Origin: Dictyostelium discoideum
Lineage: Eukaryota
Direction: 5' to 3'
Assembly (NCBI GenBank): GCA_000004695.1
Contig: CM000151.3
Location: 192,001-256,000, forward strand
Length of the DNA stretch: 64,000 nucleotides
The position numbers were made by a program, and so were the translations under genes. Position 1 is the first letter of the stretch. Each line of letters starts with the position of its first letter. The notes under the pieces were generated by a model that was not told where the DNA came from, did no database searches, and saw only the letters and a program-made list of their open reading frames with translations. Positions 1,220 to 64,000 of this stretch are shown here, piece after piece.

Positions 1220-4196
<2,977 letters not shown>

Positions 4197-21821: not shown

Positions 21822-22686
21822 ATGAAAATTGGTGTTGTTTCACAGGGATCAGGTTCATCTTATGTAGAAATGGAAAATACAAAAGTTTTATGTACAATGT
21901 AAATATCCATCAAATCATCAATCAATTATCATAATTATAAATAATTTTCAAGATTTATTAATTTTTATCATTTTTATCATTTTTTGAAAAAAACAAAAAA
22001 CACTAAAAATTCTCTTTTCTACAATTATTATAATCGATCATTATTCAAAAAAAAAAAAAAAAAAAAATTTATTATAATAATAAAATTAATTATTTAATTA
22101 ATTATTTAGACATGGACCACGTGCAACACAAAAGACAGAATTATTTGAAACAGCTAAATTAAATTGTGAATTAAAGTATACAACATTTTCAAGTACAACG
22201 GAAAAGATTGATTATGTGGAGAATAGTAAAGAAAAAGATTTAAGTTTATTGATAAGTCAATCGATAATCGGGTCTATCAGGTTGGAGAAATATCCAAAGA
22301 CCGCTATCGACATTTACATATTGGTATTGAATGATGATGGTAACGTGTTGGTGGCATCTATCACTGCTGCAACTATGGCATTGGCAGACGCAGGTGTGGA
22401 AATGTTTGATATGGTTTCATCATGTTCGGTATCCTGTACAAAAGATAACAGAACATTAATTGATCCTACCACTCTCGAAGAAACCATACCAAGCTCATCA
22501 ACTGTTTTAGTCGCAAAAATGCCATCACTAAATGAAATCACTCAAATCATTCAAACTGGTGAATTACAATATACAAATGTTTTAGAATGTGTTGATCTTT
22601 GTATTGATGGTTGTGATAAAATTTATTCAATTATGAAACAAAATTTAATAGATTCATTATTACAAAAACAACAACAACAAAAATAA
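21822..22686 (+). CDS. Exosome complex component RRP46/EXOSC5-like (RNase PH fold); 2 exons (21822-21898, 22110-22686)
   Basis: Exon 1 reads MKIGVVSQGSGSSYVEMENTKVLCT and ends at a gtaaat donor. Exon 2 continues IHGPRATQKTELFE. LVLNDDGNVLVASITAATMALADAGVEMFDMVSSCSVSCTKDNRTLIDPTTLEE aligns with [56 protein letters not shown] of human EXOSC5. Confidence 0.75.
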
Positions 22687-24837: not shown

Positions 24838-26448
24838 TTATTTAACTTTATTAGTTCTTTTTGTAACAGTTGATTTTTTAGTAGTTTCATTATCTTCATC
24901 AGATTCATCAGATTCTTCAGATTCAATAGTTGGTTTATCTTGAATTGAAACAGATTCTTTAGTGACTGAAGTATTGGTGGTGGTAGTTGAGGTTGAATTA
25001 TTATCATCATCAGATTTAACTTTTTTTGATGATGGTTTCTTTGAACGAGTGAAACAAAATACAATTGGTAAAAGTAAAGAAGAGAAACCAACTAAATAAA
25101 GTAATGGATTTTGATTTGCTTCAGATTGGAAGAGAGTTAAATAGAATTTAATAGTTTCAAAGATATCACCTTGAGATGGGTCGAGTTTTTTGGCATCTTC
25201 AGCGTTTTTGGCTGCTTGTCTTTCCTTTTGAATTGTATGTTTCTCTTTCCAATTCTCTTGTAATAATTGTTGAGCTTCTTCTTGAGAATGAGTGATAATG
25301 AAATTATCAAAGAGAATATCACGAGTATTTGACAAAACTTCAATACCGACTGCAATGATTGGCTCTACGATATATGGATTCTCAACGTTGAAATAGGATG
25401 GATTTGCAATTTGTCTTGGTTTCCATTCACCCTTGTACAATGGGTTTGCTACCATTGGTGCGGACCATTTACCCTTGTATAATGGGTTGGCGATGGTTGG
25501 GATGACCCACTCACCGCATTGGCCAGAGGCGCATTTTGGATTCTCAATTGATGGTGCTTCCCACTCGCCATCGTCTTCCTCATTCCATTCTGGTGGCTGT
25601 GTTTCTGATGGGTCGGAGATTAAGAATGGCTCGTTGTCTAACCAATCGGATGGTTTGACAGCTTGTGGATCGTTGATACGTAATGGTTGGTCTTCGTCCC
25701 AGTCGTCTGGTTTGGTGGCGCCTGGTTCGGGGATTTCAGCATCGTCGACCCAGTCGGATGGCTTGGAGTCGGTTGGGTCGTCAATCTCCTTTGGTGGGTT
25801 GAAGGCTGGTGTGAACGAGTCGTGGAATGAGCCGTCCAAGACTGACTCGTCGTCGACCTTGATGGTGAAGGTGTTGTCTGGTCTGATGATCAAGGTGTAG
25901 ATATGCGACACTCTGTCTTTTCTAACCGATGGTTTTGCAGTGATCAATTTCTCTTCGTGTACATTTGTGATTGGGTTACGATGACGAACGATGAAATGAA
26001 TTCTGTCATTGCTTCCGCAAACGTCGGCGCCAAACATGATGCTGTATGGGGTGTTTGAGTCGACAGTTTCCACATTGAAATCTTCACGATCTGTGTACAA
26101 TTTAATGTAACCACCTGAACATGTTACACCCTCTTGGAATTGTAACTCATATTGAACTATTAATTCTTTATTGGTGTTATCAATTGCGTGACTTAATTGA
26201 TAGGTGATTGCATATCTTTTACCTGCTTGGGTTAATACTAAACCATTATCATTCTCATCGATTGGATCATTGGCTGCTTTAAATCCAATAACTCCACTAT
26301 ATTCTTGATTACTTGATTTAATCCATTTTGATGAACTTTTACCTAAATCTTGAAAATCTTCAAAAAATAATGTATCTTTACTTGGATTAAATGAAACACA
26401 AACTCCAATTATAATTGATAAAATTAATAATAAAATTAATTTATTCAT
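24838..26448 (-). CDS. cnxA: Calnexin, 536 aa, single exon
   Basis: The protein has a signal peptide, a lectin domain, and a P-domain with the repeated motifs KPSDWVDDAEIPEPGATKPDDWDEDQP, KPSDWLDNEPFLISDP and PPEWNEEDDGEWEAPSIENPKCASGQCGEWVIPTIANPLYKGKWSAPMVANPLYKGEW. It then has a TM helix LLYLVGFSSLLLPIVFCF and an acidic cytoplasmic tail, the hallmark calnexin/calreticulin architecture. The coding region is noticeably GC-richer than its neighbours. Confidence 0.95.
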   Translation of the reverse strand: MNKLILLLILSIIIGVCVSFNPSKDTLFFEDFQDLGKSSSKWIKSSNQEYSGVIGFKAANDPIDENDNGLVLTQAGKRYAITYQLSHAIDNTNKELIVQYELQFQEGVTCSGGYIKLYTDREDFNVETVDSNTPYSIMFGADVCGSNDRIHFIVRHRNPITNVHEEKLITAKPSVRKDRVSHIYTLIIRPDNTFTIKVDDESVLDGSFHDSFTPAFNPPKEIDDPTDSKPSDWVDDAEIPEPGATKPDDWDEDQPLRINDPQAVKPSDWLDNEPFLISDPSETQPPEWNEEDDGEWEAPSIENPKCASGQCGEWVIPTIANPLYKGKWSAPMVANPLYKGEWKPRQIANPSYFNVENPYIVEPIIAVGIEVLSNTRDILFDNFIITHSQEEAQQLLQENWKEKHTIQKERQAAKNAEDAKKLDPSQGDIFETIKFYLTLFQSEANQNPLLYLVGFSSLLLPIVFCFTRSKKPSSKKVKSDDDNNSTSTTTTNTSVTKESVSIQDKPTIESEESDESDEDNETTKKSTVTKRTNKVK

Positions 26449-30200: not shown

Positions 30201-30666
30201 TTTTAATGAATTCAATGGATAATTTATTTAAATCAAGTTCACAATTAGATTTAAGATCTTGTCAATACCTTTTAGAAGCATTAGGTAAATTATGTACACA
30301 ATCATTTAATTTGAAATCATTTAATTCAACACCTAATATGTTTGGTATTTCAAAGTTACGTGAAACTGCATTAGCAAATCTCTATAGAATCGATACAATA
30401 TGGCCATTAATTTCAGATCATATCATTGATGCTGGTAATCATAGAAATCCATTATTTAGAAAATATTCTGTTGAATTTTTAAATTCAATCATTAAATCAA
30501 CAATTTCATTACAACAATCACAACAATTATTACAATTACAAAAAGAAAAATTATTATCACAACAACAACAACAACAACAAGAAAAAGAAAAAGAAAAAGA
30601 TAATTCATCATTAAATAGTGAAAGTAATGAAGATCAATCATCTGATCTAACAAATTCACCAGTTTC

Positions 30667-30709
<43 letters not shown>

Positions 30710-33244
30710 TCAACAATTAATATTTTAAATTCAAATTTATCATCAATTAATTCACAATTTATTGAAAATTATGAATTTGAAAAAGAATTATTAGAATTAG
30801 ATAAGAATCAAATTCAATTAGAATTTTTTACAACATTAGAAGAATTATCATTTTCAACATCAAATGATACAAAAGAGAAAGTTTTAGAATCTATTAATAG
30901 TATTTTATCAACTTCTGGTCAATCTTTAACAACTTCATGGCCAATTATTTTAAGTATTTTGTTAAGAATGTCAAAATGTAATGAAAAGAGATTCATTTCA
31001 TTATCATTTTCAAGTTTAGAATTAATTTGTAATGAATTTTTATCAAATTTAACACCTGAATGTTTAGCATTAACCATTGAATTGATTGAAAGTTTTGTTT
31101 CACAAAAAGCTGATATCAATATAAGTTTAACTGGTTCATCGGGTTTATTGACAGATTTAACTTATTTCTTGGCAAATGAAAATTCAATTAAAACAAGTAA
31201 ATATCAAGTTTCAGATGGTAAAGCAATTGACCCAGTTAAAGAATCACATAGTCAATGTAGGTTCACTAAAACTTTGAATTCACGTATACGTCCATCCATT
31301 TCAGAGTCAAGTCCATTCTTTAAGGAGAAAAATAAATCATTGATTGATAGAATGTGGTTATGTTCTTTCAATTCTATGAAAACCTTATGTATTGATGTTA
31401 GACCTGCAATTAGAAATGGTGTAGTGGTTTCATTATTTCAAATTTTAACAACTTATTTCCATTTGTTTGAAAAGGAGTTATTGGATGTCATATTGTGGTC
31501 AATTCTATTCCCATTGATTCAAGAGATTAAATCATTCTCTGAAAAGGCTGATCAAGAAAGAATAGATTCTGATCTAGGTGGTGGTGTCATGTTGTTGGTA
31601 CATCATAGTAGAAACACTGCTCAAAAACAATGGGATGAAACTCAAGTACTCTCAATTGGTGGTATGGTTAGAATTTTTAAAACATTTTTTGATCAACTTT
31701 TCACTTTACCAACTTTTGATGCAGCTTGGTCAACTTTATTAAATCATCTTCAAACCGAATCTAAATCATCATCAAAGGAGGTTTCATTGACTTCACTCTC
31801 GTTCATTCATGAGATTGTAAATACTCCATCCATTATTGACCCATCACATCCACAATTGGCCGAGTCGATTTGGGAATGTTTATTACATTTGTCTCCAAAG
31901 TTATTTGATCCACAAAATTCTGTACCAAAATCATTGTCTGTCTATATCAAGGTTTTCACAGATTTGTTCAATAAAACTCGTCCTCAATTGAATCATGCAC
32001 AAATGAATCGTGCTTTGGAGATCATTTTCCCAATGGGTTTATTCATTGGTGATTCTTCAACCGTTTTATCAAATCCACAAACTCATGCCATTCAATTGAT
32101 TAAATCATTACCACCAATCACTGTGGATATTTTCCCATCGGTGATTTCAATACTTTTGAAATATATCTCGATTGGTATCAATATGGTTTCACCACCATTC
32201 ACACCAACTTCAGCAACTTGTGATTTCATATTCCCACCACAAACTCCAATTACAAAGGATTTAGTCTACTATTCAACCATCACTGAACAATCAATCGATT
32301 TAATCTATGAACTATTTTCACATTCTTCAACAACTGATGAAATGAGATCATTGGTATTCGAAGATATCATAAAGGTATTGGGTGCTTCAATGTTAACCAA
32401 ATATCAAAAATATCATTCAACCATTTGGAAACTTTCTGTATCAAATTTAATTAAACTATTACCATCTGGTCTATTGGCAATTAATATCGATTCAAATCAT
32501 TTAAATGATATTAAAAGAAATATCATTTGGACAGAGTTAATCGATTCAATTCAAACTTTTATACTTCATGAAAGACCAAATCATCAAATTTCACCAGAGA
32601 AAAGATTAGAAGAGGATCAATATGATATTGATCTTATCAATGCAATTTCAAAGGAAATGGTTGGTTTCTCTGGTATTAAAGTTGAACGTGTTTCAATCAT
32701 TCGTGATAGATTAGTTGAAATTTTACAAGAAGGTTCGGTTTTATCTGCTCATGGTCGTGAAAAAGTTGCTCAATCTTGTTATAGAAATATGTTTTCAATT
32801 TGTTCAACTACAAATAATAATAATAATAATAATAATAAAAACGATAATAATAATAATAACAATACCGATGATAATGATGGTAATCAAGCTTCAGAATCAA
32901 TTGAAATTGCTAAAGTAGTATTACCAGTGGTTTTAAAACGTTGTAAAGATGTTTTAACAAGATTTGTAATTGATGAAAGACAATCTGGTAATTATCCATT
33001 ACCAAGATATCGATTATCTGAAATCTCTTTTATCTTGAAAGAAATTTATGAATTACAATTACAATCAGGTGTTTATCAACCATTAAATAATAGTACAACT
33101 ATAATTAAACCCGAATGTAAAAGACCTCATCTATTAGAATTATATACTATACTTTGTGATTGTATTTGTACTTCTGAAAAAGAAATTAAAGAATTATTAA
33201 AAAATATATTTTTAATTATCTCGAAAGAATTTTTAAATTTATAA
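27294..33244 (+). CDS. mon2: MON2 homolog (Arf-GEF-like Golgi/endosome scaffold), about 1.85k aa; 4 exons (27294-27473, 27579-27708, 27819-28604, 28701-33244)
   Basis: The N-terminus MEKNKSALLSFLEMDLRNISSEARNKLLNIKEASERGILYIKYL aligns with human MON2 [69 protein letters not shown] aligns with [34 protein letters not shown]. The donors are gtaatt, gtatgt and gtgaat, each followed by an AT-rich intron. The last exon is 4.5 kb with poly-N, poly-Q and poly-T inserts. Confidence 0.9.
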
Positions 33245-34930: not shown

Positions 34931-35913
34931 AAATTTTATTTATTTATAAATAAAAAATAATAATAATAATAGTTGAATCATCAAGAGAAGATCATCAAGA
35001 ACAAAGTAGAATGATTATATCATATTTATCAAGTTTAGCAAAAGAAAAAGGTACACAATATAATTCATTTCGTATTGGTATTAGTGGACCACCAGGAGCA
35101 GGTAAATCAACATTCATTGAAGCATTTGGAAAATATTTAACATCATTAGGACATAGGGTTGCAGTATTGGCAATTGACCCATCGTCAGTAAGATCTGGTG
35201 GTTCAATTTTAGGTGATAAAACTAGAATGACAGAATTGGCAGTAGACGAGAATGCCTATGTCAGACCATCAGCAACTAGAGGCTCATTGGGTGGCATAAC
35301 TAAAGGAACTTCCGACACTATCATTCTATGCGAATCTGCAGGATACGATATAGTTATAGTTGAAACCGTTGGTGTTGGTCAATCTGAGGTGTCAATAGAC
35401 GATATGGTAGATTGTTTCGTTCTGTTAGTGCCACCTGCAAATGGCGACGAACTTCAAGGTTTAAAAAAAGGTATTGTAGAATCTGCCGATATCGTAGTGG
35501 TTAATAAAGCCGATGGCGAATTATTACCAAAAGCAAGATTCACCGTCTCAGAGTACACTTCGGCTTTCAAGCTCCAAAGACCAAAAAATCAGCATTGGAT
35601 CTCCAAAGTTGTGTCATGTTCTTCCATTTCAAAGGAACATATCGATAAAGTTTGGAATACAATGTGTGAATTTAAAAAAGTTATGATGAATTGTGGTGAC
35701 TTAAAAACTAAAAGATCACTTCAAAAAGAAACTTTTATGAAGAAATTATTAGAAGAAGAATTATTAACTTTACTCCATCACAATGAAGATGTTCAAAAAG
35801 TTTTACCTTACTTTGAACAACAAGTGAAAGATGGTATTCTTTCACCAACTTTAGCATCAAATGAAATAATTAAAACATTTTTAATTTCTGAAAAAAATAA
35901 ACCAATTAAATAA
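34562..35913 (+). CDS. Methylmalonic aciduria type A protein homolog (MeaB/ArgK G3E-family GTPase), mitochondrial; 2 exons (34562-34868, 34973-35913)
   Basis: Exon 1 is a presequence-like N-terminus (MLRSIIKTKNIVQKSS...). After a gtatgt donor, exon 2 carries the P-loop GISGPPGAGKST, then the switch regions DPSS...GGSILGDKTRM, VETVGVGQSE and the NKADG motif, all typical of MeaB/MMAA. Confidence 0.9.
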
Positions 35914-49164: not shown

Positions 49165-51803
49165 ATGATATCAATGGACTCAACCCCAACATTGAATTTT
49201 GAAACATCAGGTAAATATTATTATTTATTATTATTATTTATTATTTATTATTTATTATTTATTATTTATTATTTAAAATAGTAATAACAAAACAATAATA
49301 ATAGTGATAATAAAAAAAAAAAAAATAAAAAAAAATAAAAAAAAATAAAAAAAAAATAATCTTTCGTTTCGTTTTTTTTTTTTTTTTTTTTTTTTTTTTG
49401 GTTGATTAAGTGAAAAAATAACAATAATAAAAAAATAAAAAAAATAAAAAATAAATAAATTAAATTATAAATTAAATTATTAATTAAAAAAATTTTTTTT
49501 TTTTTTTTTTTATTATATTAAAAAAAATAATAATAATAATAAAAAAAAAAGATAATCTGGATGGATTACCGGATGGATCAAATGCATTTAAAATAAATAT
49601 AGATGATTTGGAATTTGGACAAGAAATTGGTAAAGGTGCATATGGTAAAATTTTTAAAGGTGAATATTTTGGAACACCAGTTGCAATTAAAGAGATATCA
49701 TTACAACCAAACGATGTGAAATATAAAGATTTAACCAAATTTATACAGAGAGAAGTAGCAATGTTAAGATTTAGTCATCCAAATTTAGTTCAATTCATTG
49801 GAGTATCGGAAAGAGGATCCAGTCTATACATTGTTACAGAGTTTGTACAGGGTGGTGATTTAGCTTATTATTTATTTAGAAATAAATTTGATGACACTCC
49901 AGAACAGTATATACACAGAAAAGTGAATGTCGGAAGTAGCTCAACACCCGACCTATCGGACCCGACCGTTCACAACGGCGAGAAGTTGGTGCAGTTGGCA
50001 TGGCCGTTGCGTATAAAGATAGCCTATGACGTTGCCTGCGCAATGGCGTATCTCCACTCGAGGAATGTGATACACCGTGATTTGAAATCCACAAATTTAT
50101 TAGTTGGCGACAATTGGAGAATCAAAGTTTGTGATATGGGATTCGCCAGAACTGCACAGGTCGGCGGAGGGTCAAGAGCAAAGCGAACAATGACCATCTG
50201 CGGAACCACAAATTGCATGGCGCCAGAGGTCGTGCTCGGCCAAGATTATAATGAGGCGTGCGATGTCTTCTCCTATGGTATTGTGCTATCGGAGATTATC
50301 ACTCGTATGGATACAACAAATAATCTTAGACCTTCGTCTTTAAAGTACGGTTTGGATGTCGATGTCTTATTACCATTGGTTCCAAAAGATTGTCCACCAC
50401 CATTTTTAAAATTGGTTCTAGATTGCACTGAATATGATCCAGACAATAGACCTACCTTTAAAGAAATCACAGAACGTTTAAAAAGTTTAACTAAAAAATT
50501 ATCAACACCTCACATTTTACCACCTTTAAGAGTTTTAGCACAATCACCATTAACATCACCAATTCAATCACCAATTTCAACTAAAAATCAATTTAATCCA
50601 AATTTATTTAAATCAATTGTACATAATAATCATAATCATAGTAGTAGTAGTAATAATAGTAGCGGATATAATAATAATAGTAATCATAATATAAATATAA
50701 CAGTAAATAGCATAAATATAAATAGTAGTAATATAAATAATAATAATAATAATAATAATATAAATAATAATAATAATAATAATAATAATATTAGTTTTTC
50801 AGGAAGACAAGAAGAGTTAATGTCACCAATATCAATGGGAGATGAAAGTGATTTAGATTCCGATGATGAGGATGATTCTTATACTTCTTCAGCTTCTTCA
50901 AGTAGATGTAATTCAAGAAACGGTAAAATTATAAATGGAGGAAAACAAATGGGTTATATAATAAAACATCATTATAGTAGTGATTTGGAATCATCGCCTA
51001 ATGGTAATAATATTAATAACAACAACAATAACAATAATAACAACAACAACAACAACAACAATAATAATAATAATAATAATAATAGCGGCAATAATGGAAT
51101 TTGTATAAATAGTTTAAGTTTAGGAGTATCGTCATCACCAATTCAAATTGGATTATCATCAAAATCACCAACACCACCATCAATGTCACCACCAACTTCT
51201 GTAAAATCTTATCATCCAAATAATAATAATAATAATATCAATATCAACAACACCAACACCAACATCAACAATAATAAAATTTCATCATCACCACCAGTTA
51301 AAAATTCACCAAAATCAAATAGATTTTCAAATGGATCATTAAAACAACAATTTCAACAATATCAACAACAACAACAACAATTATTTTTAAATATTAATGA
51401 AGATGATAAAGAATTGGAGGAATTATCAAAATCAATTGATGATACTTTTAGATTACATTTTTCACCTTTAAATATTTCACCAACTCAAAATAATAATAAC
51501 AATAATAACAATAGCAATAATAACAATGGTAATGTTAATCATAATCATCATCATTTAAATCAACATAGTCATATTAATGGTCATTTAATATCACCAACAA
51601 TTATATCTTCATCATCAACAACTTCTTCATCAACTTCAACACCTTCTTTAGTTAGTTTAACTTCATCTAGGGATCACCATCATCATCACATATCTGTAAC
51701 CTCTTCTCCAACTAATATCAAACCATTATCTTCTTCAATTGCCTCAAATTCTTCAGTCTTCACTCCGTTAGGTAGTGGATTAACAAGAACTGTACAAAGT
51801 TAA
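49165..51803 (+). CDS. Protein kinase, TKL-like (tyrosine-kinase-like Ser/Thr family), with a long N/S/H-rich C-terminal tail; 2 exons (49165-49210, 49550-51803)
   Basis: Exon 1 reads MISMDSTPTLNFETS and ends at g|gtaaat. Exon 2 begins after aaaag and joins in phase. Kinase motifs include GKGAYGKIF, VAIKE, HRDLKSTNLLV, DMGFAR and CGTTNCMAPEV. The tail has poly-N, poly-H and S/T runs. The gene ends at TAA 51801-51803. Confidence 0.85.
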
Positions 51804-52514: not shown

Positions 52515-55500
52515 ATGAAAATAAAATTTATAAATTATTTATTATTATTTTTTATTATTTTTTTAAATTATAATGGATTTGTAAAATCAGATTGTTATCA
52601 AGAACTCGATTTGGTTTTATCTAATTCTTGTAGAAATGGCCCATCAAAATTAGTTATTCATGAAAGTATTTATTCTTTTGAAAGTATTGAATTGACTCCA
52701 TTTGTTCAACCAAAATTACTAAATTATTATTCTTGGGATTTACAAGATGGAATTAATTATTTCATAAGTTACAGATACAAGAATTGTAGTAATATAATTT
52801 CTAAACCATTTGCTTCAAAAGGAATGTATTATAAACTTTTAGCGGAACCATTATGTTTAAATACATATATTCCAGTTAGAGTTTATAATTGGGGTGCAGG
52901 TGGTATAGAATATAATTTTTATAGTGTTCCATCAACGATTTGGGTTAATTCACAAAATGGTTTATGTAGTTTCCAATCACCAATTTCTCCACAAAGTTAC
53001 ACAAAAGGTGTATTAAATGATGGTGCACTCAAATTCGTTGGACCAACATGTGGTTTTAAAAATGGTACGATTACAATTGATTTAACCAAAGGTTATTCAA
53101 ATTATCATTTATTCCTTCAATCAGATTACCTTTTTGATAATGAAATTCAACCATCTTCAGAAGGTTTTTACAATGGATTGGAATCTGAAAATTACTCCCT
53201 TTTCGTTGATTCTGAACAGTGTGCTACTGAAAGAATTGAAATTTACATGAAGGATGTTTTCGCTCCATTGGAAATTGATTTTGAGAATGTTCCAGACTTA
53301 TTCCATAATTCAACAATTTCACTATCATTATCAAGTGGTAATAATGGAATTTTAAATAACACAAATATAAATGCTTTTGTAATACAATCAGAACGTTTAC
53401 TTACAGATTGGAACCATGTCCAAACCCAAATTACTTCAAATACTTATTATGGGTACGCTTATAATAAAGACTTTTCAACGGAAGCAGGTCAGACAAAATG
53501 TGTATATTCTGAAACACTTTTATTTGATAATTATTCCCCAAATTTCAATTTCACAATTTCAAAAAGTGAAAGTTGTTTAGAAAATGTTTCAATTACATTC
53601 TATCCATTACCAAATCAAAATATTAAAGTTTATGATTATAGCTCAGAGTCTGGTATTCCATTCTCAATGAAGGATAACGTTTTATCAGTTGAAAATAATT
53701 TAAATTTATGGATTTTTGATACCAATCAAAATTATGGTATTGTTCATTCAACTGTTTTTGATATACCATCTTATAAAATTATTGAAACTTCAAATGGAAT
53801 TGGATGTTGGAAAACTTATAATATTACAATTGTAAATTATGAAAATTATAAAAATCTAAGAATTCATTTTTATAATGAAAATAGTGAATTTAATTTTTAT
53901 CCAGTAGAAGGTGTATTTATAAATGTACCTGCATTGTATTACTATGTTACTTATAATGCTGGTGATTGTGAAACTGAATCATACTTTGTAATTGATAAAC
54001 TTGATAGAAATACTCCAATGGATAATGTAGTTTTGGAATTCAACACATTGGAAATTGGTAATTGTACACATGAAACTTCATTCATGGTGACTGTGAAATC
54101 AGTATTCGGTAGCTATTCAAAAACTATGCAAACATTCTATGATAAAGAATTTACTATATTCCTTCCAAATTGTTCATGTCAGATTAATGGCATTTACGTA
54201 GCACCCCGCTTAATTGATGGTGATTCACTTATTTATGAATTATTAACAGATCCAAATTGTAATTCTACTGATACTTTAATTAGATTTACTTCTCCTTCCC
54301 AAGATTATTCAATATCATCTGTATATCAAAATGGTGTTCAATTGCAATATTATAACAATTTAAATGGTTATTATATTAGTTCAGGTGAAAATAATATTAC
54401 AGTTAATTATGAAGGTGATCAATATTGTTATAGAACTGAAACAATAACTATTCAATCAGTTTATGAAGTACCATTGGTCCAAATTACACCAGTTTCAGAT
54501 TGTAGAAATCCAAATGGAAAAATTGAAATTTCAAATTTCCAAATTTTCTATAACTTAGAGCTTGTATTTAATTCAAATAGTAAACCAATTAATCAAGGCT
54601 TTATTGAGAATCTTGCATCCGGTACATATACAATTAATTATTACAGCAATCAAACATGTATAAATTCTATCACTGTTTATGTACCATCTTCAGAAAATGT
54701 AGCAGAAATTACAACATCAGTAATTAGCAATCCAACTTGTGATAATGGTCCTTTCTCTGATGGTATGATCAGAGTAGCTCTTAAATATGAAGGTAATCAA
54801 ATTAATAATTTCACAATCCAAAATCAAGATGCAGAATTTACCTACCTTAATGATGGTGTTTACCCAATAGCAGGTGTTGGTGTAAATAGTTTAACAATTT
54901 CATATCTTTCTTGTATATGGAAAAGAGATATTACAACAGTACTCAATAAGCCAAGCTTTACTCTGGAAAAAGTTTTTAATGATACTTGTGATCTACAAAG
55001 TGTTTATAAATTAGTATCAAGTAATCCAAATATTGAAATCGATTATATTGATTCATCAAATGGCTTTTCTTACCTAAATAACTATTATCTAGTATTTCAA
55101 AATAGTGGCGATTTTGGTTATTATGTGGCTTGGAATTCACGTTGCTATGAATATTACACTCAACAAATTATAATGGATAATTATGATAGGGATAGTAATG
55201 TTAAATATATAGATTATGAAATTGTAAAACCAGATAATTGTAATTCATTAAAAATCGATTTAATCATTACAAATATGAACAAATTCATTAGTTTAACCAT
55301 TGAAAATAAACTTCCAACACCAATTAATTCGACCCATTCAATTTTCAAAAATTTACCACCATCAAAAAGTTATGACATTTTATACACATTATTAAATGGT
55401 TGTGTCGCGTATCAAACTGTTGGTATAGATGAATTCAAATCTGGTTTTACTAAAGAAACAATAGATATCATTAAAACAAGTGATATTTGTTACTCTGGTA

Positions 55501-56096
55501 AAGCTTCAATACAATTATCAAATTTGGATTTTGATAATTATTATTATTATATTAAAAATTCAAATAGTTTAATGGGAGTTACTGATTCATACGATTCAAT
55601 TCAACCACAGCAAAGTGGTAATATTAATGGTACAATTTTACTTTCAAATTATAATCCTGGTAGTTATAAAATTTATCGTGGTTGTAAATCAATGGCAAAC
55701 TGTTATTTAGAAACAAATGTTGTTATTGAAAGTGAAGATCCAATAATTGAATCAATTTCAGTTACTGATTCATATGATAAATTAAATAATGGCACTGTTG
55801 AAATTAAATTGAATTATAATTCACCATATCCAATTAATTTTAAAATCATTGGTACTCAATTATCAAATCAAAATGGTAAATTTGGAAATTTAACACCAAA
55901 AACATACGAAGTTCAAGTTACATTAACTGATAGAATGTGTCCAGTCACTTTATCAAAATCATTTACAATTAATTTAAAAACATCACCACCAACACCATCA
56001 CCACAAGATCCATCTGATGAACTTTCAACATCCTCATTTGTTCAAGTAAATCTTTTATTCTTATCAATCTTAATTTTCACTATTTTTATTTTTTAA
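52515..56096 (+). CDS. Large secreted surface protein of about 1193 aa, Cys-patterned, N-glycosylation-rich, putatively GPI-anchored; family unassigned; paralog A
   Basis: The gene is a single exon. A signal peptide MKIKFINYLLLFFIIFLNYNGFVKS opens it. More than 60 NxS/T sequons are present. A Cys-NG-x-I module recurs, for example GPTCGFKNGTITIDLT, VSDCRNPNGKIEISNF, SNPTCDNGPFSDGMIRV and SDICYSGKASIQLSNL. The C-terminus SPPTPSPQDPSDELSTSS plus the hydrophobic tail FVQVNLLFLSILIFTIFIF looks like a GPI-attachment signal. Confidence 0.8.
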   Translation: MKIKFINYLLLFFIIFLNYNGFVKSDCYQELDLVLSNSCRNGPSKLVIHESIYSFESIELTPFVQPKLLNYYSWDLQDGINYFISYRYKNCSNIISKPFASKGMYYKLLAEPLCLNTYIPVRVYNWGAGGIEYNFYSVPSTIWVNSQNGLCSFQSPISPQSYTKGVLNDGALKFVGPTCGFKNGTITIDLTKGYSNYHLFLQSDYLFDNEIQPSSEGFYNGLESENYSLFVDSEQCATERIEIYMKDVFAPLEIDFENVPDLFHNSTISLSLSSGNNGILNNTNINAFVIQSERLLTDWNHVQTQITSNTYYGYAYNKDFSTEAGQTKCVYSETLLFDNYSPNFNFTISKSESCLENVSITFYPLPNQNIKVYDYSSESGIPFSMKDNVLSVENNLNLWIFDTNQNYGIVHSTVFDIPSYKIIETSNGIGCWKTYNITIVNYENYKNLRIHFYNENSEFNFYPVEGVFINVPALYYYVTYNAGDCETESYFVIDKLDRNTPMDNVVLEFNTLEIGNCTHETSFMVTVKSVFGSYSKTMQTFYDKEFTIFLPNCSCQINGIYVAPRLIDGDSLIYELLTDPNCNSTDTLIRFTSPSQDYSISSVYQNGVQLQYYNNLNGYYISSGENNITVNYEGDQYCYRTETITIQSVYEVPLVQITPVSDCRNPNGKIEISNFQIFYNLELVFNSNSKPINQGFIENLASGTYTINYYSNQTCINSITVYVPSSENVAEITTSVISNPTCDNGPFSDGMIRVALKYEGNQINNFTIQNQDAEFTYLNDGVYPIAGVGVNSLTISYLSCIWKRDITTVLNKPSFTLEKVFNDTCDLQSVYKLVSSNPNIEIDYIDSSNGFSYLNNYYLVFQNSGDFGYYVAWNSRCYEYYTQQIIMDNYDRDSNVKYIDYEIVKPDNCNSLKIDLIITNMNKFISLTIENKLPTPINSTHSIFKNLPPSKSYDILYTLLNGCVAYQTVGIDEFKSGFTKETIDIIKTSDICYSGKASIQLSNLDFDNYYYYIKNSNSLMGVTDSYDSIQPQQSGNINGTILLSNYNPGSYKIYRGCKSMANCYLETNVVIESEDPIIESISVTDSYDKLNNGTVEIKLNYNSPYPINFKIIGTQLSNQNGKFGNLTPKTYEVQVTLTDRMCPVTLSKSFTINLKTSPPTPSPQDPSDELSTSSFVQVNLLFLSILIFTIFIF

Positions 56097-56589: not shown

Positions 56590-59500
56590 GAAAATAAAAT
56601 TTATAAATTATTAATTATTATTTTTTATTATTTTTTTAAATAAAAATAATTTTGTAAAATCAGATTGTGATCAAGAACTCGATTTGGTATTATATAATTC
56701 TTGTGGAAATAGCCCATCAAAATTAGTTATTCATGAAAATATTTATTCTTTTGAAAGTATTGAATTGACTCCATTTGTTCAACCAAAATTACTAAATTAT
56801 TATTCTTGGGATTTACAAGATGGAATTAATTATTTCATAAGTTACAGATACAAGAATTGTAGTAATATAATTTCTAAACCATTTGCTTCAAAAGGAATGT
56901 ATTATAAACTTTTAGCGGAACCATTATGTTTAAATACATATACTCCAATTATAGTTTATAATTGGGCTGCAGATGCTTCACCCTATAGTTTTTATAGTGT
57001 TCCATCAACAATTTGGGTTTATTCACAAAATGGTAATTGTAATTTCCAATCACCAATTTCTCCACAAAGCTACACAAAAGGTGTATTAAATGATGGTGCA
57101 CTCAAATTCGTTGGACCAACATGTGGTTTTAAAAATGGTACGATTACAATTGATTTAACCAAAGGTTATTCAAATTATCATTTATTCCTTCAATCAGATT
57201 ACCTTTTTGATAATGAAATTCAACCATCTTCAGAAGGTTTTTACAATGGATTGGAATCTGAAAATTACTTCCTTTTCGTTGATTCTGAACAGTGTGCTAC
57301 TGAAAGAATTAAAATTTACTTGAAAGATGTTTTCGCTCCATTGGAAATTGATTTTGAGAATGTTCCAGATTTATTCCATAATTCAACAATTTCATTATCA
57401 TTATCAAGTGGTAATAATGGAATTTTAAATAACACAAATTCAAATGCATTTGTTGGAAATACACAGCGTTTACTTGCAGATTGGAACCATGCACAAACCC
57501 CAATTATATCAAGAACTGTTTATGGGTATACTTATAATAAAGACTTTTCAACAGAGGTTGGCCAGTTACAATGTAATTTTTTCGAAACACTTTCATTTGA
57601 TAATTATTCCCCAAATTTCAATTTCACAATTTCAAAAAGTGAAAGTTGTTTAGAAAATGTTTCAATTACATTCTATCCATTACCAAATCAAAATATTAAA
57701 GTTTATGATTATAGCTCAGAGTCTGGTATTCCATTCTCAATGAAGGATAACGTTTTATCAGTTAATAATAATTTAAATTTATGGATTTTTGATACCAATC
57801 AAGGGTATGGTATTGTTCATTCAACTGTTTTTGATATACCATCTTACAAAATTATCGAAACTTCAAATGGAATTGGATGTTGGAAAACTTATAATATTAC
57901 TATTGTAAATTATGAAAATTATAAAAATCTAAGAATTCATTCATATAATGAAAATAGTGAATTTAATTTTTATCCAGTAGAAGGTGTATTTATAAATGTA
58001 CCTGCATTGTATTACTATGTTACTTATAATGCTGGTGATTGTGAAACTGAATCATTCTTTGTAATCGATAAACTTGATATAAATACTCCAATGGATGGTG
58101 TGACTGTTGAATACACTACATTGAAAGTTGGTAATTGTACACATGAAACTTCATTCATGGTGACTGTGAAATCAGTATTCGGTAGCTATTCAAAAACTAT
58201 GCAAACATTCTATGATAAAGAATTTACTATATTCCTTCCAAATTGTTCATGTCAGATTAATGGCATTTACGAAGCACCCGGCTTAATTGATGGTGATTCA
58301 CTTATTTATGAACTTTTAACAGATCCAAATTGTAATTCCACTGGCACTTTAATTAGATTTACTTCTCCTTCCCAAGATTATTCAATATCATCTGTATATC
58401 AAAATGGTGTTCAATTGCAATATTATAACAATTTAAATGGTTATTATATTAGTTCAGGTGAAAATAATATTACAGTTAATTATGAAGGTGATCAATATTG
58501 TTATAGAACTGAAACAATAACTATTCAATCAGTTTATGAAGTACCATTGGTCCAAATTACACCAGTTTCAGATTGTAGAAATCCAAATGGAAAAATTGAA
58601 ATTTCAAATTTCCAAATTTTCTATAACTTAGAGCTTGTATTTAATTCAAATAGTAAACCAATTAATCAAGGCTTTATTGAGAATCTTGCATCCGGTACAT
58701 ATACAATTAATTATTACAGCAATCAAACATGTATAAATTCTATCACTGTTTATGTACCATCTTCAGAAAATGTAGCAGAAATTACAACATCAGTAATTAG
58801 CAATCCAACTTGTGATAATGGTCCTTTCTCTGATGGTATGATCAGAGTAGCTCTTAAATATGAAGGTAATCAAATTAATAATTTCACAATCCAAAATCAA
58901 GATGCAGAATTTACCTACCTTAATGATGGTGTTTACCCAATAGCAGGTGTTGGTGTAAATAGTTTAACAATTTCATATCTTTCTTGTATATGGAAAAGAG
59001 ATATTACAACAGTACTCAATAAGCCAAGCTTTACTCTTGAAAAAGTTTTTAATGATACTTGTTCACTACCAAATGTTTATAAATTAGTATCAAGTAATCC
59101 AAATATTGAAATCGATTATATTGATTCACCAAATAACTTTTTTTATCAAAATAACTATTATCTAGTATTTCAAAATGTTGGTAATTCTAGTTATCAAGTG
59201 GGCTGGAATTCACGTTGTGAAGAACATTACTATCAACAAATAATAATGGATAATTATGATAAAAATAGTAATGTTAAATATATAGATTATGAAATTGTAA
59301 AATCAGATAATTGTAACTCATTAAAAATTGATTTAATCATTACAAATATGAACAAATTCGTTAGTTTAAATATTGAAAATAAACTTCCAACACCAATTAA
59401 TTCGACCCATTCAATTTTCAAAAATTTACCACCATCAAAAAGTTATGACATTTTATACACATTACTAAATGGTTGTGCAGGGTATCAAACTGTAGGTGAA

Positions 59501-60181
59501 GATGAACTCAAATCTGGTTTTACTAAAGAAACAATGGATATCATAAAAATAAATGATCTTTGTTACTCTGGTAAAGCTTCAATACAATTATCAAATTTGG
59601 ATTTTGATAATTATTATTATTATATTAAAAATTCAAATAGTTTAATGGGAGTTTCTGATTCATTTGACCCAATTCAACCACAACAAATTAGTAGTAATGG
59701 TACTATTTTACTTTCAAATTATAATCCTGGTAGTTATAAAATTTATCGTGGTTGTAAGTCAATGGCAAACTGTTATTTAGAAACAAATGTTGTTATTGAA
59801 AGTGAAGATCCAATAATTGAATCAATTTCAGTTACTGATTCATATGATAAATTAAATAATGGTACTGTTGAAATTAAATTAAATTATAATTCATCAAATC
59901 CAATTAATTTTAAAATCATTGGTACTCAATTATCAAATCAAAATGGTAAATTTGGAAATTTAACACCAAAAACATACGAAGTTCAAGTTACATTAACTGA
60001 TAGAATGTGTCCAATCACTCTATCAAAATCATTTACAATTAATTTAAAAACATCACCAACACCATCACCAACCCCATCACCACAAGATCCATCTGATGAA
60101 CTTTCAACATCATCATTTGTTCAAGTTAATCTATTATTCTTATCAATCTTAATTTTCACTATTTTTATTTTTTTAATTTAA
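56590..60181 (+). CDS. Paralog B of the surface-protein family; a 1165-aa body ORF about 93-95% identical to A, but the start codon is lost and the signal peptide has a stop, so it may be a very recent pseudogene
   Basis: At the position homologous to ATG of A, B reads AGG (aaaaaggaaaataaaattt versus aaaaatgaaaataaaattt). Codon 9, TTA in A, is TAA in B (aattattaattatta). Downstream of that the frame is open to 60181, with the same C-terminal GPI-like tail. Confidence 0.6.
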
Positions 60182-60648: not shown

Positions 60649-60761
60649 TTTTTTTTTTATTTTTAATTTTTTTTTTTTTTTTTTATTTTAACCTTTTTTT
60701 TTTTTTTTTTTTTTTTTATTTTAACAAAAAAAAATAATATTAAATCTAAAACAATAAGGAA

Positions 60762-63700
60762 ATGAAATTTATAAAATATTTATTAATTTTATTTTTAATA
60801 TTAAAAATTAATTATTTTGTAGAATCAGGAGTAGATTGTCAAAAAAATACAGAGTATTTCGTTGAAAATTCATGTGGCAAAAATCCATCAAAATTAAACA
60901 TCAACACTGATATTTACTATTTTGAAAGTATTGGAATAACACCATATTCCCCACCTGTTTATAATGAATCTACAACTAATTACTTTTGGTATTTGAAGGA
61001 TGGTATTGAATATACATTTAGTTATAGATACAAAGGTTGTCAAAATATTAAATCACATTCAATTGTTTCACAAGGAATGTATTACCAACTTTTATCACAA
61101 CCATTGTGTCCAAATACCTATTTCAATTATACAATTTATAATTCAGGAGAGTTTGGTGGAAATACAAATTATTACTCTACCCCACAAAATATTATAAGTT
61201 CAAATTATAATGGTAGTTGTACTATTAATATTTTAATTACACCACTTAGTAATTCCAAAGGTGCATTCCAAAGCAGTGCTGCTAAATACACCTATCCAAC
61301 TTGTGGTTTTAATAATGGTACGATTTCAGTTGATTTAACAAAAGGTTATTCAAATTGTCACTTATTCAGCCAATTTGACACGAGTTTTCTATATGAAATT
61401 GAACCATCATCGCCATGTTTTTACAGTGGGTTGGAGTCAAATTATTATTACCTTTTCGTTGATTCTAAAGAATGTGCTACTGAAAGATTATCAATTCAAT
61501 TATTCAATGTTTTCACTCCATTGGAAATTACTTTTGAAAATGTTCCAGATTATAATCAAAATTCAATAGTATCATTATCATTATCAAGTGGTGACAATGG
61601 AATTTTAAATAAAACTAATTCATTTGCAACTGTGGGTGGCACTGGACCTGATCCATTAAGTACTTGGAGCCATAAAGAAACTAAAATTACTTCAACCACA
61701 CAATTTGGTTACTTTTATAATAAAGACTTTTCAACAGATCCATTAAAAGTTATATGTTCTTTTAATGATGGTTTTGAACCGCAAAAATTTAATCCAAATT
61801 TTAATTTCACAGTTACAAAAAGTGATACTTGTTTAGAAAATGTAACTATTACATTTTATCCATTACCAAGTCAAACATTTGTTGTTCATGATTATATTTT
61901 AGGAAATATATTACCATTGACAAATAATGTTCTATCGGTTCAATATAATAAATTTTTACATATTTCAGAGATTTCAAGTAATTCAGAAAGATATTATTCA
62001 ACAGCTTTTTATGCTCCTATTTATAGAGTTGTTGAAACTTCAAATGGAATTGGTTGTTGGAAAACCTATAATATTACAATTGGTGAATATCAAATTTATT
62101 CAAATCTTACAATGAAAGTATATGATGGAGATGAATATGAATATATTTTTTATCCAATTGAAGGAGTTTTCGTTAATGTACCTGCAAATTATTTTTATAT
62201 CCATTATAAAGTTAAAGATTGTGAAGTTGAATCAATAATTATGATTGATAAATATGAAGAAATTACTCCAATGGATGATGTAAAAATGGATATCAGTATA
62301 TATGAACTTGGTAATTGTACACATGAAACTTCAATTTTAGTAAATATCGATACAGTTTTTGGTAACTTTTCTAAAGTTTATTCATCATTTTCAAATGGTT
62401 ATTTCTCTTTTTACCTTCCAAATTGTTCCTGTAATATTGGTTTCTACTATTCTATTCCACCATTAATCGATAGTGAAACATTTTCTTATGGTTTTATCAG
62501 TGATCTAGATTGTAATTCCACTGGTACTGTTATTCAATTATTAGGTTCAAATGGTAATACTATTCAAGAAGTTTATTCAAATGGTATTAAATTAATAGTA
62601 AATAATGACGTTGATACTGATTTTGCATATAATATTGGGCCTGGTGAAAATAATGTTACAATTAAATATTCAAATACAAAAGGAACTTGTTACAAATCTC
62701 AAATGATTAACATACAATCACCTTATGAAGTACCATTAGTTGAAGTCACACCAGTTATAGATTGTGATAGTTCTGATGGTAAAATTTCAATTTCAAATTA
62801 TATGAACTTCTATTCATTGGATATTATTATTGATTCATCCACTATACCAATTAATTCAGGTTTAGTTAGTAATCTTCCAACTGGTACTTACACAATTGTT
62901 TATGGAAACAGTGGATCTTGTGCAAATTCTATCGATGTTTATGTACCATCTTCAGAACAGTATGTAGAAATTACAACATCTGTAATTTCCCATCCAACTT
63001 GTGGTGAACAATCATTGAATGGTGATGGTAAAGTCAATGTAACTTTAAAGGTTTTAGGAATTAAAAAAAATACATTCTATATTCAAAATCAAAATCAAAT
63101 ATCATCTCTAACATTCTCAGATGGTGGTGTTTATATTGCTGCTGCTCCAGGTTTAAATACTTTATCAATATCCTATGGTGGTTGTATTTGGAATAGAGAT
63201 GTTAATACAACAATTTCCAAACCAACATTCTCATTTGAAAAGATTTACAATGACACTTGTTTATCATCAGTATATTATAAATTAATAAATAATAATACAA
63301 ATATAGCAATTAATTCCATCACTTCACCTTATACCTTATATAGTTACCAAAATGAATACTACACTCAAATGGCCACAAATTTAATCTATCCATACACTGT
63401 CACATGGAATACCTATTGCACAGAAACATTTTACCAAGAATTTACTTTTGACACTCCTTTTAATTATTATTCAAATTATATCCAATATGAAATTGTAAAA
63501 GCTGATAATTGTAATTCATTCAAAATTGATATCATCATTAAAAATATGAATACTTTTCAAAAGGTAACCCTTTCAAGTAAATATCCAACACCAATTAATT
63601 CGACTCATGCAATTTTTAAAAATTTACCACCATCTATTTCTTATGATATTTCATTCACATTATTTGATGGTTGCTCTGGTACTGAAATGGTTGGTTATCA

Positions 63701-64000
63701 ACAACTTTCAAATGGTAATACTAAAGAGACAATCGATATCATCAAGGTGAACGACATTTGTAACTCTGGTAAAGGTTCTATCCAATTATCAAATATGGAT
63801 ACCTCCAATCATTATTACTATGTTAAAACATTTTCAGATTATTACGTTTACACAAGTTACCCAATTCAACCAACTACTAATGATAATGGTACAATTATTA
63901 GTCTACTTTCAAATTTACCAGTTGGTAGTTACAATATAACTAGAAATTGTAAATCAATAACAAACTGTTATATAGAAACAAAGGTTGTTATTGAAAATAA
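60762..64000 (+). CDS. Paralog C of the surface-protein family, divergent (about 50% aa identity to A); partial, running off the window end
   Basis: Translation from ATG 60762 stays open to 64000. It begins MKFIKYLLILFLILKINYFVESGVDCQKNTEYFVENSCGKNPSKLNINTDIYYFESIGITPY... and shows the same module order as A, for example PTCGFNNGTISVDLTKGYSNCHLF, SNGIGCWKTYNITI, ELGNCTHETS, LPNCSCNIG, VIDCDSSDGKISISNY and SHPTCGEQSLNGDGKVNV. Confidence 0.75.
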   Translation, partial: MKFIKYLLILFLILKINYFVESGVDCQKNTEYFVENSCGKNPSKLNINTDIYYFESIGITPYSPPVYNESTTNYFWYLKDGIEYTFSYRYKGCQNIKSHSIVSQGMYYQLLSQPLCPNTYFNYTIYNSGEFGGNTNYYSTPQNIISSNYNGSCTINILITPLSNSKGAFQSSAAKYTYPTCGFNNGTISVDLTKGYSNCHLFSQFDTSFLYEIEPSSPCFYSGLESNYYYLFVDSKECATERLSIQLFNVFTPLEITFENVPDYNQNSIVSLSLSSGDNGILNKTNSFATVGGTGPDPLSTWSHKETKITSTTQFGYFYNKDFSTDPLKVICSFNDGFEPQKFNPNFNFTVTKSDTCLENVTITFYPLPSQTFVVHDYILGNILPLTNNVLSVQYNKFLHISEISSNSERYYSTAFYAPIYRVVETSNGIGCWKTYNITIGEYQIYSNLTMKVYDGDEYEYIFYPIEGVFVNVPANYFYIHYKVKDCEVESIIMIDKYEEITPMDDVKMDISIYELGNCTHETSILVNIDTVFGNFSKVYSSFSNGYFSFYLPNCSCNIGFYYSIPPLIDSETFSYGFISDLDCNSTGTVIQLLGSNGNTIQEVYSNGIKLIVNNDVDTDFAYNIGPGENNVTIKYSNTKGTCYKSQMINIQSPYEVPLVEVTPVIDCDSSDGKISISNYMNFYSLDIIIDSSTIPINSGLVSNLPTGTYTIVYGNSGSCANSIDVYVPSSEQYVEITTSVISHPTCGEQSLNGDGKVNVTLKVLGIKKNTFYIQNQNQISSLTFSDGGVYIAAAPGLNTLSISYGGCIWNRDVNTTISKPTFSFEKIYNDTCLSSVYYKLINNNTNIAINSITSPYTLYSYQNEYYTQMATNLIYPYTVTWNTYCTETFYQEFTFDTPFNYYSNYIQYEIVKADNCNSFKIDIIIKNMNTFQKVTLSSKYPTPINSTHAIFKNLPPSISYDISFTLFDGCSGTEMVGYQQLSNGNTKETIDIIKVNDICNSGKGSIQLSNMDTSNHYYYVKTFSDYYVYTSYPIQPTTNDNGTIISLLSNLPVGSYNITRNCKSITNCYIETKVVIEN

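Follow-up and report, generated by a model that had tools for sequence, protein, structure and literature searches.

A narrow island of high third-position G+C in a LISK-family kinase gene of Dictyostelium discoideum and its possible origin in GC-biased gene conversion

The window analyzed here is a stretch of 64,000 nucleotides of the Dictyostelium discoideum genome (contig CM000151.3 of assembly GCA_000004695.1, positions 192,001 to 256,000 of the forward strand). An initial annotation of the window had noticed an island of high G+C, about 400 bp in size, inside the catalytic core of one protein kinase gene. The island is real; its excess of G+C is confined to synonymous sites and arose by A/T-to-G/C substitutions in the D. 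discoideum lineage. With moderate confidence, we regard it as a narrow, lineage-specific hotspot of GC-biased fixation, which most likely reflects GC-biased gene conversion (gBGC) and has no function for the kinase. The underlying substitutions run in one direction, are limited to one place and one lineage, are silent and indifferent to codon optimality, come with a deficit of reverse changes and recur in three nearby genes; the fixation bias behind them most likely stems from gene conversion at a recombination hotspot. The features of the kinase gene are as follows.

49165..49210, forward strand: exon 1, encoding MISMDSTPTLNFETS plus the first base of an Asp codon; it starts with ATG, is followed by a GT donor at 49211, and the spliced protein is colinear with its orthologues
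49211..49551, forward strand: the sole intron, with GT...AG borders and the reading frame restored; G+C about 4-14%
49552..51803, forward strand: exon 2, encoding the kinase domain (Pfam PK_Tyr_Ser-Thr, Pkinase) and then a low-complexity Asn/Ser-rich tail
49905..50366, forward strand: island of high G+C at third codon positions (GC3), codons 134-287, the maximal-scoring segment on third positions

Exon 1 is 46 nt in length; the island begins about 350 bp downstream of the intron, which is extremely AT-rich. Pfam PK_Tyr_Ser-Thr matches the kinase at 7.6e-53, and orthologues with 70-81% identity are found in Acytostelium, Tieghemostelium and Cavenderia. The T. lacteum and C. fasciculata orthologues (70% identity) carry the NCBI name 'LISK family protein kinase'; by its domain and the names of its orthologues, the kinase is predicted to be a member of the LISK (LIMK/TESK-like) family. 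The island opens with an 'HRKVNxGSS...' insert, which every one of these orthologues shares and which indicates colinearity and vertical inheritance of the kinase protein. The nearest D. discoideum paralogue among those returned by the protein search shares 37% identity with the kinase. The spliced AX4 protein has no exact entry in the protein collection searched.

In the maximal-scoring-segment test on third positions, 0 of 2000 shuffles matched the score of the observed segment. The segment starts exactly at the position given in the initial annotation (49905), whereas its end lies at 50366, about 45 bp downstream of the annotated 50320. In the protein, it begins at the insert in subdomain V and ends slightly past subdomain IX; the translation quoted for it was correct. 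G+C is 48.1% in 49905-50320, compared to 21.7% for the whole window, and peaks over 120 nt at 55.8% (49931-50050) and 55% (50151-50270), in agreement with the original count of about 55%. GC3 is 0.52 over the 154 island codons and 0.129 over the remaining 612 codons of the gene. In 30-codon windows along the gene, GC3 climbs from 0.03-0.20 to 0.40-0.73 between 49914 and 50318, and G+C at first and second positions (GC1 and GC2) stays roughly level. The flat GC1 and GC2 place the anomaly at synonymous sites and rule out amino-acid composition as its cause; as the initial annotation had supposed, the explanation needs to be evolutionary.

Third positions of the island are used almost uniformly (A 0.24, C 0.28, G 0.26, T 0.21), compared to A 0.45, C 0.08, G 0.10 and T 0.37 in the flanks within the kinase domain. 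The 5' edge is fairly sharp; 20-codon GC3 rises from 0.10 to 0.75 within about 30 codons. CCG, GGC, GCG, TCG, GAC and CTC are all enriched in the island (GGC 4 vs 1, GCG 3 vs 0 and CTC 2 vs 0 in the island and the rest of the gene, respectively). Their description as almost absent from the rest of the window was overstated, however, as the calnexin gene cnxA uses GAC, GGC and TCG. Among the open frames of at least 120 codons in the window, the kinase ranks second for its 40-codon GC3 maximum (0.73), after cnxA (0.80); the maximum of every other frame is at most 0.50. The N-lobe of the same kinase domain is equally conserved, yet its GC3 is 0.3 or below in all five taxa compared, so protein conservation alone does not explain the island.

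The initial protein search returned no orthologue from group 4; the group-4 orthologues were reached through the downstream neighbour of the kinase gene, DDB_G0271238. Those compared with AX4 are from D. discoideum ACTFIR (L008), D. cf. discoideum ACTFIY (L010), D. citrinum (L009) and D. firmibasis (L011), using the assemblies of bioRxiv 10.1101/2025.08.01.668227 and of the D. firmibasis genome project. In all four assemblies, the kinase domain is 96.7-98.8% identical to that of AX4 and lies in one ungapped frame. The island is present in ACTFIR and ACTFIY and weaker in D. citrinum and D. firmibasis: 20-codon GC3 is 0.5-0.8 in AX4 and ACTFIR, 0.35-0.7 in ACTFIY, 0.3-0.5 in D. citrinum and 0.15-0.6 in D. 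firmibasis. The T. lacteum orthologue, which is AT-rich, and that of C. fasciculata showed no corresponding island. Within the island, only one amino acid, I155V, changed on the D. discoideum branch. Since independent assemblies carry the island, the assembly chimera raised in the initial annotation is excluded.

The direction of change was determined at third positions with the same state in D. citrinum and D. firmibasis, which was taken as ancestral; W>S denotes A/T-to-G/C changes and S>W the reverse. In the island (amino acids 137-271), third positions of the D. discoideum clade underwent 30 W>S and 2 S>W changes in total, distributed as follows.

Island, stem of the D. discoideum clade: 19 W>S, 2 S>W
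Island, later branches (AX4+ACTFIR 6, ACTFIR 4, ACTFIY 1): 11 W>S, 0 S>W
Kinase flanks, all branches: 8 W>S, 12 S>W

The contrast between the island and its flanks is significant (Fisher p = 4e-5), and it has two components. W>S gains occurred at 30 of the 60 ancestral W sites in the island, compared to 8 of 119 in the flanks (p = 9e-11); S>W losses affected 2 of 28 ancestral S sites in the island and 12 of 27 in the flanks (p = 0.002), although this sample is small. The rise of W>S together with the fall of S>W fits a fixation bias and not just an altered mutational input. The spectrum of W>S changes in the island comprises 18 T>C, 12 A>G and 3 transversions. The share of transitions, 30/33, is similar to that in the flanks (8/9), indicating that the rate was raised and the kind of change was not altered. 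Third positions also diverged faster in the island than in the flanks, both between AX4 and D. citrinum (0.45 vs 0.23) and between D. citrinum and D. firmibasis (0.35 vs 0.21). Over the island, the two D. discoideum haplotypes differ at few sites; all four third-position changes on the ACTFIR branch are W>S, and the AX4 branch has none. The W>S run is lineage-specific, local (about 460 bp), recent and still going on. We rejected the possibility that the island is the decaying relic of a GC-rich ancestor, which predicts about one site with G/C in the D. discoideum clade only (from single-loss patterns); 19-30 such sites were observed.

The changes that produced the derived codons include CCA>CCG, GCA>GCG, TCA>TCG, GGT>GGC, CAA>CAG and AGA>AGG changes; GAG and GTG were gained too. 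CCG, GCG, TCG, GGC, CAG, AGG and GTG are not preferred in highly expressed D. discoideum genes. The codons that this species prefers are not rich in G+C (PMC8321536). The bias is indifferent to codon optimality, and the derived codons end in C and G alike. It affects 154 of the 766 codons instead of the whole gene and includes non-optimal G-ending codons and GGC, which is not the pattern of translational selection.

Besides the kinase island, three other islands of the same kind are located in the window.

25444..26103, reverse strand: island in cnxA (calnexin, DDB_G0271144), codons 116-335; GC3 up to 0.83-0.90
22216..22512, forward strand: island in the gene of RNase PH (an exosome subunit), open reading frame (ORF) codons 39-137; a weaker cluster of W>S changes on the AX4 branch
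35176..35634, forward strand: island in a MeaB-type GTPase gene, ORF codons 75-227; a weaker cluster of W>S changes on the AX4 branch

The calnexin ORF (24838-26448, reverse strand) is identical to D. discoideum AX4 DDB_G0271144. Its island is larger and stronger than that of the kinase, and its GC3 profile is bell-shaped, with the peak in the middle of the gene. The RNase PH and MeaB islands have a GC3 maximum of about 0.5; for RNase PH, island GC3 is 0.52 in AX4, 0.24-0.28 in D. citrinum and 0.12-0.20 in D. dimigraforme. The order AX4 > D. citrinum > D. dimigraforme holds for GC3 in all three genes. Using D. citrinum (L005) and D. dimigraforme (L012), substitutions on the AX4 branch were polarised for the genes at 19-37 kb of the window, with the following counts.

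cnxA island: 42 W>S, 4 S>W
cnxA flanks: 8 W>S, 7 S>W
RNase PH ORF, clustered in codons 39-137: 20 W>S, 1 S>W
MeaB ORF, clustered in codons 75-227: 28 W>S, 6 S>W
Control, the 1513-codon gene at 28703-33241: 21 W>S, 23 S>W
Control, five small genes pooled: 14 W>S, 9 S>W

The pooled islands differ from the controls with p = 6e-12. The relic model fails for cnxA as well; it predicts about 6 sites, and 50 were found. With four such islands within about 30 kb, the same signature in cnxA, RNase PH and MeaB makes the kinase island one case of a recurrent, local and directional process in the D. discoideum lineage. The codons of the cnxA island are unlike those of the kinase island: the third-position frequencies of C and G (C3 and G3) are 0.40 and 0.15, and Pro is encoded by CCA in 25 of 26 cases. 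According to the initial annotation, the kinase anomaly would be an artefact if its composition were within the range of a highly expressed gene such as cnxA. The composition of cnxA is indeed comparable, yet the anomaly is not an artefact, as cnxA holds a second island that arose from the same directional process.

In the mechanism that we favour, the kinase island would be ordinary, vertically inherited coding sequence, in which silent sites moved from about 30% to 50-75% G+C by at least 30 W>S substitutions in the D. discoideum clade since its split from D. citrinum, with almost no reverse changes. The cause would be a narrow and recurrently used site of homologous recombination, where mismatches in heteroduplex DNA are repaired toward G:C. 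Such gBGC would act like weak directional selection for G or C at every freely varying site; the island itself, without function for the kinase or its mRNA, would be a footprint of DNA repair. A local rise of W>S with a fall of S>W, which is indifferent to codon optimality and variable between sister lineages, is the signature expected of gBGC at a narrow hotspot. Meiotic crossovers are frequent in D. discoideum (PMC6369745). In Dictyostelium, the G+C of exons is higher around lost introns, for which gene conversion was invoked (PMC4683709), and chromosome size and G+C are negatively correlated in D. discoideum (r = -0.94, PMC5635611).

Several observations weigh against gBGC. Published genome-wide tests found no sign of it in D. 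discoideum: recombination rates based on linkage disequilibrium are unlinked to G+C in 5-kb windows, GC3 of exons is not predicted by the G+C of introns, and AT>GC and GC>AT single-nucleotide polymorphisms in introns share one frequency spectrum (PMC8321536). Mapped crossovers favour low-G+C sequence (PMC6369745). All four islands are located inside long exons, and none of them includes any intron or intergenic sequence, which would also fit an exon-only or silent-site-only process. At codon positions 1-2, the W>S:S>W ratio is 7:2 in or next to the islands and 48:56 elsewhere, a suggestive difference (p = 0.09). On the coding strand, island W>S changes comprise 72 T>C and 39 A>G, compared to 13:14 in the controls, which is not a significant difference (p = 0.13). 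A weak tendency towards C-ending codons, or an asymmetry between the strands, could underlie the T>C excess. In addition, the changes in the kinase gene were polarised by parsimony with five taxa, and the flank samples are small.

Selection on silent sites is an unlikely explanation. On this view, the exon core would benefit from a higher local G+C or from codons ending in C, whether for the accuracy of translation in the catalytic core, for mRNA stability or to avoid cryptic AT-rich signals, such as those for premature polyadenylation or spurious transcription. The location of the four islands in exons, over conserved protein cores, agrees with selection, as do the roughly twofold excess of T>C (NNT>NNC) over A>G in the islands, the published report of no gBGC (PMC8321536) and an excess of W>S across one gene of the D. 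citrinum branch, which is limited to third positions (64:11 vs 18:17, p = 3e-4). The cnxA island agrees with it too, with its CCA codons for Pro (25/26) and a C3 (0.40) far above G3 (0.15), as in highly expressed genes. However, the kinase island gained the non-optimal GCG, CCG, TCG, GGC, GAG, GTG and AGG codons in a species whose favoured codons are not rich in G+C (PMC8321536), and its C3 (0.28) is similar to its G3 (0.26). The equally conserved N-lobe of the same domain is still AT-rich, and nearly the same protein is encoded in D. citrinum, D. firmibasis and T. lacteum, where the island is absent or much weaker.

Also improbable, somewhat more so than selection, is a purely mutational hotspot, in which local mutations are biased to W>S but their fixation is not. 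Error-prone repair synthesis or transcription-associated damage giving A:T>G:C transitions could be its source. Third-position divergence in the island, about twice that of the flanks, and the predominance of transitions among the W>S changes (30/33) are in line with such a hotspot; however, the W>S transition to transversion ratio is alike in the flanks (8:1), and a change of input alone does not predict the depletion of S>W (2/28 vs 12/27, p = 0.002).

Among the proposals of the initial annotation was a one-time replacement of the segment by that of a GC-richer paralogue or foreign orthologue, whether through gene conversion, introgression or horizontal transfer. Despite the fairly sharp 5' edge and the near-uniform third positions, which resemble those of a genome with moderate G+C, we consider it very improbable. 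The W>S changes are distributed over four or more successive branches (stem 19, AX4+ACTFIR 6, ACTFIR 4, ACTFIY 1), and the same pattern is seen in three further genes nearby. With silent changes and I155V as the only replacement, a donor would have to be a near-identical group-4 orthologue, and no GC-rich one is among those sampled; the closest D. discoideum paralogue returned is just 37% identical. Identical codons shared with GC-rich Acytostelium amount to 0.33-0.35 in the island and 0.37-0.41 in the N-terminal flank. The 71-73% nucleotide identity to the GC-rich Acytostelium orthologues in blastn is the level imposed by the shared protein, and no affinity of the island to the Acytostelium, T. 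lacteum or C. fasciculata orthologues was found at the codon or nucleotide level. An island 33-mer had no exact match in 185,579 prokaryotic genomes, a test of low power. All dictyostelids examined carry the segment as a colinear orthologue, and its G+C was gained stepwise, not in a single event. Gene conversion may well be involved, but probably not in the donor form that was proposed.

Assembly chimerism or contamination, or a structured RNA or antisense gene within the coding sequence, is scarcely credible, as nothing but the compositional contrast and three antisense ORFs speaks for it and the island is in frame and colinear in four other independent assemblies. The Rfam scan of the island gave no match at E<=1, and neither a tRNA nor any known RNA family was found. 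The island has a folding z-score of -1.3, with 13 of 100 shuffles folding at least as well; in the five-species consensus fold, the covariation term is unfavourable (+0.48), 8 of 130 pairs are compensatory and many are broken. The antisense ORFs exist as annotated, but they were rejected as genes; their length is that expected by chance from the composition, since ORFs at least as long occur in 45% of synonymous resamplings.

The history of the introns was also considered. The C. fasciculata orthologue has introns at amino acids 116 and 238 and that of A. subglobosum at 56 and 116; on the orthologue sequences, introns are located at about 3437-3495 and 3849-3919 (L002), 3357-3435 and 3620-3661 (L003) and 3261-3321 (L004). 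The introns at 56, 116 and 238 adjoin or fall within the island region, and none of them was found in T. lacteum or in any sampled group-4 species; the island is thus probably located where introns were lost. The D. discoideum kinase retains just its 5'-most intron, a pattern commonly put down to cDNA-mediated intron loss. As a direct trigger of the island, however, intron loss was rejected because of its timing: the introns are gone from all sampled group-4 species and from T. lacteum, and T. lacteum has no island. At most, the lost introns mark a region prone to conversion; they are not the cause.

Hotspots of gBGC, also known as 'biased clustered substitutions', are known in mammals, birds and yeast. 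A classic case is mouse Fxy, whose pseudoautosomal part acquired a very high GC3. Like these hotspots, the kinase island is a W>S cluster of sub-kb to kb size with an S>W deficit; it is restricted to one lineage, disregards codon optimality, does not alter the protein and forms a sharp GC3 peak in one gene. Expression-linked codon bias is another system for comparison, reportedly described in D. discoideum by Sharp and Devine in 1989. The islands share with it the increase of C-ending codons, especially in cnxA; different from it, they are local within a gene, include G-ending and non-optimal codons and differ between orthologues of sister species. Horizontally acquired segments show a similarly sharp compositional contrast with the host genome, whereas the kinase segment is orthologous and colinear in all dictyostelids examined, its kinase-domain protein is 97-99% identical in the sister species and its silent G+C was gained stepwise.

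Compared to the gBGC hotspots of other organisms, the putative one described here is seen as a pattern of substitutions in coding sequence, and the genome-wide tests in D. discoideum are negative (PMC8321536). D. discoideum also lacks Spo11, and its mapped crossovers lean to low G+C (PMC6369745). From the same genus comes the study of Ma et al. (2015), in which exon G+C of D. discoideum and D. purpureum was found to be raised at lost introns and attributed to conversion between gene and cDNA (PMC4683709). The two cases share the genus and a local, exon-limited rise of G+C read as biased gene conversion, and the kinase retains only its 5'-most intron; different from the lost-intron case, the W>S burst of the kinase is later than the absence of the introns and specific to the D. 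discoideum clade. Ma et al. reported a statistical trend of G+C, not polarised bursts of substitutions. In the literature searched, we did not find sub-kb GC3 islands or polarised W>S bursts described in Dictyostelium. The kinase island is best classed as a new instance of a feature already known, the GC-biased substitution hotspot, in an organism where it was not expected.

For the kinase itself, the island probably means nothing in functional terms; its interest lies in genome evolution, as it could be a case of local gBGC in a genome believed to lack the process and might provide a handle on Spo11-independent recombination. A tentative and broader view, which we hold to be possible but doubtful, is that the sub-kb GC3 islands (at least four in 30 kb) are footprints of narrow, long-lived and lineage-variable hotspots of Spo11-independent meiotic recombination or heteroduplex repair in exons. 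If it is true, gBGC would be active in D. discoideum at a scale invisible to the published 5-kb and intron-based tests, and mapping the islands genome-wide would, for the first time, chart the historical hotspots of a eukaryote with recombination independent of Spo11. Social amoebae reach a yeast-like recombination frequency without Spo11, and how it is initiated is unknown (PMC6369745); if the islands mark recurrent heteroduplex formation, they would provide concrete, testable coordinates for how recombination starts. D. discoideum has also been used as an effectively gBGC-free eukaryote to calibrate the inference of selection on codon usage (PMC8321536). Local W>S bursts, which take GC3 from about 0.15 up to 0.5-0.9 within a few hundred bp in several genes, would confound such codon-selection analyses and tests based on synonymous divergence (dS).

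The W>S excess of D. citrinum was observed in the orthologue of the 28703-33241 gene (L005 3307-6774), with 64:11 at position 3 and 18:17 at positions 1-2. It is diffuse over the whole gene, and AX4 is at equilibrium there (21:23). Elsewhere on the D. citrinum branch, the W>S:S>W counts are 18:8 in cnxA, 6:1 in RNase PH and 7:2 in MeaB. GC3 may have risen broadly in the D. citrinum lineage, a pattern distinct from the local islands of AX4. A relocated hotspot was dropped as the explanation, since the excess is spread out along the gene and affects third positions only; it is not used as evidence for hotspot turnover.

Mild GC3 rises of their own, located elsewhere in the kinase domain, are present in the distant kinase orthologues of C. 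fasciculata (L002, amino acids 276-330, 0.45-0.55) and T. lacteum (L001, amino acids 226-275, 0.30-0.40). In the ACTFIR and ACTFIY annotations, the kinase is part of a gene model of 1979-1995 residues, apparently fused with upstream sequence (L008 2759-9785; L010 2549-9518); in D. citrinum and D. firmibasis, it has separate models of 751 and 737 residues, respectively.

Downstream of the kinase gene, the window contains a tandem array of three paralogous genes on the forward strand, each encoding about 1200 residues.

52515-56096, forward strand: first gene of the array, directly downstream of the kinase gene (DDB_G0271238)
56615-60178, forward strand: second gene of the array
60750-63995, forward strand: third gene of the array

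The encoded proteins have no match in Pfam; their N terminus is signal-peptide-like and their C terminus is hydrophobic. They evolve fast, with 58% identity to D. citrinum and 46-47% to D. firmibasis, and the same genes are tandemly repeated in the other species too.

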